The position numbers and the translations under genes were made by a program. The notes beneath the pieces are model-generated. The model was not told the DNA's origin, ran no database searches, and saw only the letters and a program-made list of their open reading frames with translations. DNA of 63,059 bases, filler included, from Sluysia triapertura (taxonomy: Eukaryota), in assembly GCA_046118255.1 (NCBI GenBank). It is 5 parts of 5 records of this genome, joined end to end, with 100 filler letters (N's around TTAATTAATTAA, not from the genome) between each part and the next. Parts side by side here need not be neighbours in the genome. Positions count along the whole stretch, not along the records: positions 35,377 to 49,093 come from JBJNIA010023510.1; 4 more parts are not named here. The stretch is one strand, 5' to 3'. This document shows, piece by piece, positions 39,545 to 40,660 of the stretch. Numbering within the stretch: the stretch's first letter is position 1; every line of letters starts with the position of its first letter.

Positions 39545-40440
39545 TTTAATGCAAATAGAGAAGAAGATGGATTAATATTTATATCTAAAAATTTAATATT
39601 ACGATTTGGTAAAGAAATTACAGAAATAATCTACCGAGTTATCCATCTTGTATAACATGTCAAGAAAGGAAGTGGCAGAAATAATTCAAAATTCAGTCCT
39701 TTAATAATAAAATTGATTTTAAAAAAAGTTTATCGAAGATTATCAACTAAATATTGCTTACCAAATTAGCAATAGATATTACTAATTCAGGTTTAGTGGA
39801 ATTACTTCTTCCATTGAAAGAAGGAGTCTTGTTTAAATTTGGGTGAATTAATATATACTTATAAATGCATTAGTAGAAGTACAAATAAGGCAAGAATCAC
39901 AATGAATAAATGACTTGCCTGTAACTTATACAAACTTACCTTGATTAAGTTACACTAGTAATACTACCAAGTTATAAATTAAGACCTAAACCTATGCATT
40001 GCTCAAATGTTATAGCGATTATAGATGATAATCTATTAATATCTCACAACATAGGAGTTAATTATACGATTAACTGAATTAAAAGGAAAGCAAAAATGTT
40101 TTCAATTCAGCAGCTCGCAAAGAAATTCTATTCCCAATAAAAAGGTCCCAAGTTTTAACTGATATAATGGTCAGAAAAAGATGATAAGTAAATTATGAAT
40201 TACTTTTAAGACTTGACCACTTTAATAAAACGGCACAAAATGCGTCAATTTTAGTTTCAGAATTATTTTTAGAATTAAATAATTAAATAATAATTAAACT
40301 TATAACATTAATTATATCACAAATATTTTCCATAATTGGAATCTATAAAATGTCAGGTTTTACTCGGAAATTGATAATTCATTTCCATTGATAAGTTATT
40401 TCCATTGATGGCAAAATATCTTTTACATCATGCAAACTCA
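39545..40440 (+). pseudogene. Second, diverged chuvirus-like glycoprotein remnant
   Basis: Fragments ANREEDGLIFISKNLILRFGKEITEIIY, FNNKIDF, LLTKLAIDITNSGLVELLLPLKEGV, LGELIYTYKC, VEVQIRQESQ*INDLPV, AARKEILFPIKRSQVLTDIM, NYELLLRLDHFNKTAQ are collinear with the 10.1-11.2 kb copy. Heavily deleted; absent from the ORF track. Confidence 0.8.
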
Positions 40441-40539
40441 CAAATAAATGCACTGTAGAAAGAAAGACAACAAGCAGAAAACAAAGTACAAAAAATAAAG
40501 AACGTCACCCTTTAAAAATGTAGTTTACATAATATGTGG

Positions 40540-40660
40540 TTAATATTATAATTAATAGTAGAATAATATCCAATTTGGTAGATACTGGAGCTGCTGCTGC
40601 TTCCTTAATAAATGAATCCTTCTTAAAAAGTTATGAATTTAGCGGAACATTGTTCCTATG
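40540..40660 (+). pseudogene. Retropepsin remnant directly downstream of the second glycoprotein
   Basis: VNIIINSRIISNLVDTGAAAASLINES; DTG at 40581-40589. Confidence 0.78.

Follow-up and report, generated by a model that had tools for sequence, protein, structure and literature searches.

Copy 2, the sequence around positions 39545–40660, is with a probability of about 0.88 the remnant of a gag-env-pro-pol Ty3/gypsy LTR retroelement of the Burro-like, gB-type errantivirus kind, lying in a probable flatworm genome. Both its envelope gene and its protease gene are broken; intact relatives carry env, protease, reverse transcriptase (RT) and RNase H as well as integrase in a single frame. Because copy 2 contains neither RT nor integrase, its membership of the Ty3/gypsy elements rests on the homology of env and protease.

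The decayed glycoprotein and protease of copy 2

The window, i.e., the whole 63-kb stretch of DNA that was analysed, consists of five AT-rich contigs joined by N spacers, with copy 1 and copy 2 on separate contigs (Table 1). Its animal genes are a mitochondrial carrier, the end of an alpha-actinin, an SH3 gene and an Unk-type zinc finger. Three aralar exons gave their top scores with trematode proteins, among the 118 of 120 matches that covered every one of the three. A quick tree (44 rows) placed the window aralar outside the trematode clade, in a group of 13 rows (SH-aLRT 97); wherever a member of this group is named, it is a flatworm. On the strength of this grouping the host is probably a platyhelminth. 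The search with alpha-actinin was uninformative on the host, and Intoshia was dropped as a candidate (52% identity, long branch).

The envelope sequence of copy 2 is of the chuvirus-like, Monjiviricetes-type, gB-fold class III glycoprotein type, with its 5' end cut off. Frameshift-aware alignment of the copy 1 env to copy 2 gave a score of 134, compared with 36.3 ± 4.7 (maximum 54) for 100 Markov-resampled sequences and at most 48 for 88 other tiles of the window's 90; plain tblastn was marginal, with two HSPs (E value 0.002 and 0.009). Five intact relatives aligned to positions 39521–40592 with scores of 152–231, 4–10 frameshifts and 6–11 stops, and the total of breaks in the copy 2 env is 4–10 frameshifts and 6–12 stops, varying with the reference used. 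The five motif pairs listed by the first-pass annotation are present and collinear in the two copies: FNNKID (39700 in copy 2, 10967 in copy 1), TKLA (39760, 10859), GELIYTYKC/GKVMYTYK (39842, 10775), KEILFPIK/NEILFPIK (40119, 10466) and NYELLL (40191, 10382). They are spread over three different frames. The longest stop-free stretch per frame in 39545–40660 is 37–42 codons, and copy 2 is therefore invisible to an ORF track, as the same annotation had stated; a single-frame Pfam scan returned a match in none of the three frames.

Downstream, LVDTGA begins at position 40575, within a protease-profile match of 14.7 bits, as compared with 4.1 for the next background match, and this is the sole above-background match to that profile outside copy 1 in the 63 kb. 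The mean score of this protease is 39.3, against a background of 26.1 ± 0.9 (n=25). It can be recognised over its N-terminal 28–32 residues only, its C-terminal half having gone undetected in the profile comparison, and since only about 30 residues are recognisable it is not assignable to one particular protease of the family. The DTG lies some 155–190 bp downstream of the last hydrophobic segment, which agrees with the earlier figure of about 150 bp between the tail and LVDTGA; copy 1 and most relatives have a longer spacer. Taken together, the env and protease scores bear out the original proposal of a second, diverged copy with the glycoprotein-then-protease order.

Table 1. Coordinates of the contigs and of the element-derived features in the window
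Feature	Positions	Strand	Evidence or remark
Contig 1	1–11605		carries copy 1 on minus strand
Ty3/gypsy pol, separate and decayed (end of RT, RNase H, integrase)	4213–6014	+	46–51% identical to P0007
Copy 1 region, third retropepsin, DTG at 7893	7708–7935	-	motif, Pfam, profile
Copy 1 second retropepsin, DTG at 8940	8723–8985	-	motif, Pfam, profile
Copy 1 integrase zinc-binding (H2C2) remnant	9107–9471	-	Pfam and family comparison
Copy 1 first retropepsin, DTG at 9881	9643–9926	-	motif, Pfam, profile
Copy 1 env glycoprotein, cut by contig end, 6–9 frameshifts, 2–4 stops	10089–11600	-	PF24664
Contig 4	35377–49093		carries copy 2 on plus strand
Copy 2 env, decayed C-terminal half, with membrane segments and tail	39521–40503	+	frameshift-aware alignment, profiles 39.7 and 17.7 bits
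Copy 2 retropepsin, N-terminal part with catalytic DTG (40581)	40536–40631	+	profile 14.7 bits

No gag, RT, integrase or other part of the family was found near copy 2 in 35500–39500 and 40640–43200, nor any LTR-like repeat around it in 35377–43200. Copy 2 is a dead remnant, devoid of present coding function.

Several other features were seen in the window. Two overlapping, intact-looking ORFs on the plus strand (36739–37530 and 37431–38333; 264 and 301 codons) had no Pfam match at the cut-off, no usable atlas match and no match to the env family; contigs related to them are abundant in run X1, so that they are probably part of a repeat. A broken helix-turn-helix transposase-like remnant lies at 41130–41600 on the plus strand (weak DDE_Tnp_ISAZ013, E value 0.01). 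It is followed at 41780–42300 by a GC-richer stretch without Pfam match, for which the summed depth of related contigs in run X1 is about 12000–20000, and whose RPD motif we take to be like that of non-LTR endonucleases. The segment 29079–29330 (minus strand), also without Pfam match, resembles the C terminus of a LINE-type reverse transcriptase.

In copy 1 the env matches PF24664 (E value 8.7e-31) and is thus a fusion glycoprotein of the Monjiviricetes type; at its start, the first retropepsin shares the reading frame of the env tail. The region as a whole (7708–9926, minus strand) holds three retropepsins and has kept an integrase zinc finger; the RT, RNase H and integrase core are missing, none of them having been found beside the H2C2 remnant, and no LTR pair was found in contig 1. 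The decayed pol at 4213–6014 converges on copy 1 from the opposite strand. Its closest relative is P0007, and it probably belongs to the same wider family, unlinked to copy 2.

Architecture of intact relatives and the env-protease junction

An unindexed search of 1.84 billion representatives returned 271 relatives (E value ≤0.001). The best 150 of the 271 were used, and the best among these are long polyproteins of 750–2900 aa. A word-indexed search with copy 1 found none among 3439 candidates, which were proteins of 266–847 aa, the relatives being longer. No relative was present among viral contigs (94 pattern matches) or genome contigs (61), and at least three were present among the 593 pattern matches listed for metagenome contigs.

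According to Pfam, the order env-PR-RT-RH(-INT) occurs in five of the 23 relatives scanned (P0002, P0007, P0009, P0025 and P0032), and also in P0152 and P0154. Weak Retrotrans_gag matches or zinc knuckles are located upstream of env in P0005, P0010 and P0025; the window copies are cut before this point. At the DNA level, L001 and L003 each show env, DTG and YxDD, in this order, in a single frame of 3426 and 2693 codons, respectively, and no LTR pair was found in either, both being fragments or short contigs. The best PDB match of the relatives by sequence is Ty3 Gag-Pol (E value 2.8e-45). With the order PR-RT-RH-INT and an RT of the Ty3 type, the intact relatives are classed as Ty3/gypsy elements. 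The family ENV is predicted to adopt a class III gB-type fold, given that copy 1 matches PF24664 and that the model of P0004 (mean pLDDT 58) matched herpesvirus gB with a Foldseek E value of 3.5e-10 and chuvirus-like glycoproteins with an E value of 2e-33, at low TM-scores (0.2–0.36).

Accessory domains were noted in some relatives. P0004 includes a Bcl-2-like domain before env (residues 9–70; E value 0.00096, below the cut-off), P0001 has a BH2-like motif directly before env (near residue 106), and P0154 (4844 aa) contains an ankyrin domain. BIR and MATH domains gave no match in the 27 relatives scanned, and the window holds no such accessory domain. P0007 (HBK71150.1), an env-PR-RT-INT polyprotein, is annotated as a protein of a Flavobacteriaceae MAG, and is probably a eukaryotic contig mis-binned into a bacterial MAG. 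In both P0002 and P0007 a C-terminal segment of 400–600 residues follows the integrase; it has no Pfam match, is bounded on either side by hydrophobic stretches and is possibly a second membrane protein.

Of the 155 proteins examined, 26 continue for at least 150 aa beyond the env tail; in 20 of them a protease follows 47–308 aa downstream. All 17 long-enough relatives of the close group (14 when three cluster-mates are left out) have an in-frame protease after env, as do three of the nine long-enough proteins of the distant group, counts that are partly circular, the profiles having been built from these same relatives, and with which Pfam agrees independently. A further 28 close proteins end too early to judge whether a protease is present. 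The consistency within the close group supports the view, already put forward in the first-pass annotation, that the env-PR junction is a family trait.

The relatives examined have between one and seven retropepsin domains each, all in frame, the seven being those of P0154; multiple in-frame retropepsins were also seen in P0005, P0001, P0002 and L001:2-10279. Both motif patterns tested (DTG and xGxD) are kept in 25 of 28 retropepsin segments. In a fast tree, three RT-adjacent retropepsins cluster (support 96) and the env-adjacent ones scatter. Since the relatives carry several proteases, the env-adjacent enzyme need not correspond to the RT-adjacent protease of pol. A phrase search of the literature on LTR elements for repeated proteases (multiple, tandem, duplicated) gave no paper, which is weak evidence that the arrangement is unpublished, and the figures and supplements of the known papers may show it. 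We tentatively raise, while considering it rather doubtful, the idea that the lineage multiplied its protease, the extra domains serving to release the embedded env and other cargo or to pair within one chain. Several proteases in one polyprotein would bear on the processing of a membrane glycoprotein that sits between Gag and Pol and, if the idea is correct, the window samples two old sub-lineages of multi-protease endogenous viruses from an unsurveyed flatworm group.

An active ancestor would have made one polyprotein. Because env is preceded by a hydrophobic segment and followed by membrane segments, the ectodomain would come to lie in the ER lumen. The protease would stay cytosolic and there cut the Pol enzymes free by self-cleavage, and the class III fusogen would give particles entry to other cells. 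The lineages of copies 1 and 2 would have split under coding constraint long before these insertions, and each copy would have decayed after insertion, copy 2 losing its 5' half and everything past the start of the protease.

A separately assembled contig of 1675 bp from run X1 (depth 15.9) spans 39384–41058 without a single difference or gap. The window may itself derive from run X1, and the exact contig therefore demonstrates faithful assembly rather than an independent occurrence. At ≥80% likeness, 7730 contigs of this run match a stretch of 7.8 kb. The summed depth of the related contigs, which is not a copy number, is 12261 and 1547 in the env bins and 73 over the protease. This suggests that the env sequence is repeated in the genome, and the low value over the protease could reflect many close copies that lack, or differ in, the protease part. 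The high copy number that had been deduced from two hits in 63 kb is weakly argued, because the window is made up of five short joined contigs.

The low depth over the protease would also be expected if the env piece belonged to the family and the DTG fragment at 40536–40631 had been contributed by a different element, through nesting or chance juxtaposition in a repeat-rich region. The small number of matching protease residues, the short spacer and the other transposon debris in the neighbourhood fit this as well. However, the fragment lies on the same strand as env, in the right order and at a distance compatible with the 47–308 aa of the relatives; no second protease match exists outside copy 1, and the junction falls within one exact X1 contig. 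We regard chance nesting as improbable, and prefer to read env and protease as parts of one decayed element.

Divergence of the two copies

The proteins of copies 1 and 2 are 32–36% identical over 183–267 shared columns. Nucleotide identity at the three codon positions is about 0.5, 0.60–0.67 and 0.36–0.40, compared with 0.30 for random sequence, so third positions are near-saturated, and over half of the residues identical in both copies are encoded by different codons. With blastn (word size 7) no collinear chain was obtained, only short scattered matches, the best of which was 45 nt in reverse orientation (E value 7e-4). Similarity is thus clearer in protein than in DNA, as had been remarked. 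The low identity and the near-saturated third positions support the assignment of the copies to distinct lineages, in line with the earlier suggestion of distinct subfamilies, and the codon-position pattern indicates that they diverged under coding constraint and not through decay of one insertion. Database relatives are closer to each copy (39–48%) than the copies are to one another.

In a quick tree built from 28 ENV rows, in which copy 2 forms a long branch, both copies fall within the clade of env-PR polyproteins, apart from six more distant glycoproteins (SH-aLRT 100), and both group with P0013 (support 90, long branches). Monophyly of copies 1 and 2 is not rejected (p-AU 0.435), and the two may be sister lineages.

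This placement bears on the proposal that copy 2 derives from a free endogenous chuvirus glycoprotein, or from an Anakin-type BEL/Pao element with env after pol. The PF24664 domain of copy 1 and the chuvirus-like fold of the P0004 model are what such an origin would produce, and chuvirus glycoprotein insertions are described as common in arthropods (PMC7642597; 10.1101/2022.06.22.497255). However, among the best 150 of the 271 relatives, the stand-alone glycoproteins of about 650 aa are 18–28% identical, as compared with 28–38% for the polyproteins, within whose clade both copies nest. The one relative with DUF5641 before env, P0078, sits in the outgroup, DUF5641 being presumably a BEL/Pao-type domain. 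A BEL/Pao pol backbone was not found in the close relatives, which have a Ty3-type pol after env. We consider a free or Anakin-type origin very improbable and retain the Ty3/gypsy polyprotein as the source.

Assembly error as the cause of the breaks or of the junction, in a locus that is really intact or chimeric, is hardly any more credible. The contigs are short, the assembly is repeat-rich and some breaks in copy 1 fall at A-runs, yet the 6–12 in-frame stops of copy 2 speak against it, as does the X1 contig that reproduces 39384–41058 exactly, although X1 may hold the window's own reads. Env genes have been domesticated in other animals, but domestication of this one by its host is just as implausible, a role as a protein being refuted by the missing 5' half and by the lack of any stop-free stretch over 42 codons.

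As a locus, copy 2 is a dead fragment of little importance. The pair nevertheless points to at least two deeply split env-in-polyprotein lineages in one genome, and supports the notion that elements with env inside the polyprotein are old and diverse in flatworms.

Comparison with described elements

The planarian Burro/GYPSM1 elements, for which Arkhipova and Yushenova (2019) cite Grohme (2018) and Jurka (2007), are giant gypsy-like LTR retrotransposons of 25–30 kb with accessory BCL2, BIR, MATH and ankyrin domains. Their env homology, situated after BCL2 and before PR, is described as the first example of an env lying in frame between gag and pol (PMC6431247). In the section concerned, the Burro env is related to mononegavirus fusion glycoproteins, ORF1 has 4873 aa and decaying fragments are known in Dugesia japonica (PMC6431247). 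Our sequences share with Burro the probable flatworm host and the in-frame env before PR in a giant polyprotein, found in P0154, P0152 and L001. Among the relatives, a Bcl-2-like domain below the cut-off (P0004) and an ankyrin domain (P0154) occur, and lengths of up to 4844 aa are attained. In contrast, the window copies, compared with Burro through its published description, are short, broken and devoid of gag, RT and LTRs. Moreover, one protease is named in the section on Burro (PMC6431247), as against one to seven in the relatives described here.

GAG-ENV-POL errantiviruses of the HSV/gB type have been reported from Nematoda, Bryozoa and Platyhelminthes (Chary and Hayashi 2026, PMC13524379). 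Smed_errantivirus_1-6 make up part of the Platyhelminthes C1a group, with 1–215 copies in Schmidtea, and gB-type ectodomains lie between two membrane segments or between a signal peptide and a membrane segment (PMC13524379). Judged by eye, the six Schmidtea errantivirus ENV rows share the motif series of the window. The paper differs in listing intact elements only, and the word polyprotein is absent from its text as available (PMC13524379). The likeness extends to the gB-type fold and to env preceding protease or pol, as in copies 1 and 2 and in all 17 close relatives. Non-canonical nematode ERVs with a continuous gag-env-pro-pol frame are reportedly the subject of Sacco et al. 2022 (J Gen Virol 103:1739). 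They resemble our elements in having env before pol in a metavirus-type element and differ in their nematode hosts. Judged by eye, the nematode ENV row is much less like the window copies than are the Schmidtea rows (PMC13524379).

Anakin, for which mosquito Pao elements captured the glycoprotein of a chuvirus (Dezordi 2020, PMC7642597), is likewise a case of a chuvirus-like glycoprotein in an LTR element. It has, however, a BEL/Pao backbone and mosquito hosts, whereas the relatives here have a Ty3/gypsy-like pol with env before the protease. Troyka was dropped as a lead, the part of the source available not being relevant (PMC12440569). The novelty of the env-PR order that the first-pass annotation had implied does not stand, since the order has already been published (PMC6431247; PMC13524379). 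Env before protease is an arrangement already described in flatworm elements, and copy 2 is an ordinary decayed member.
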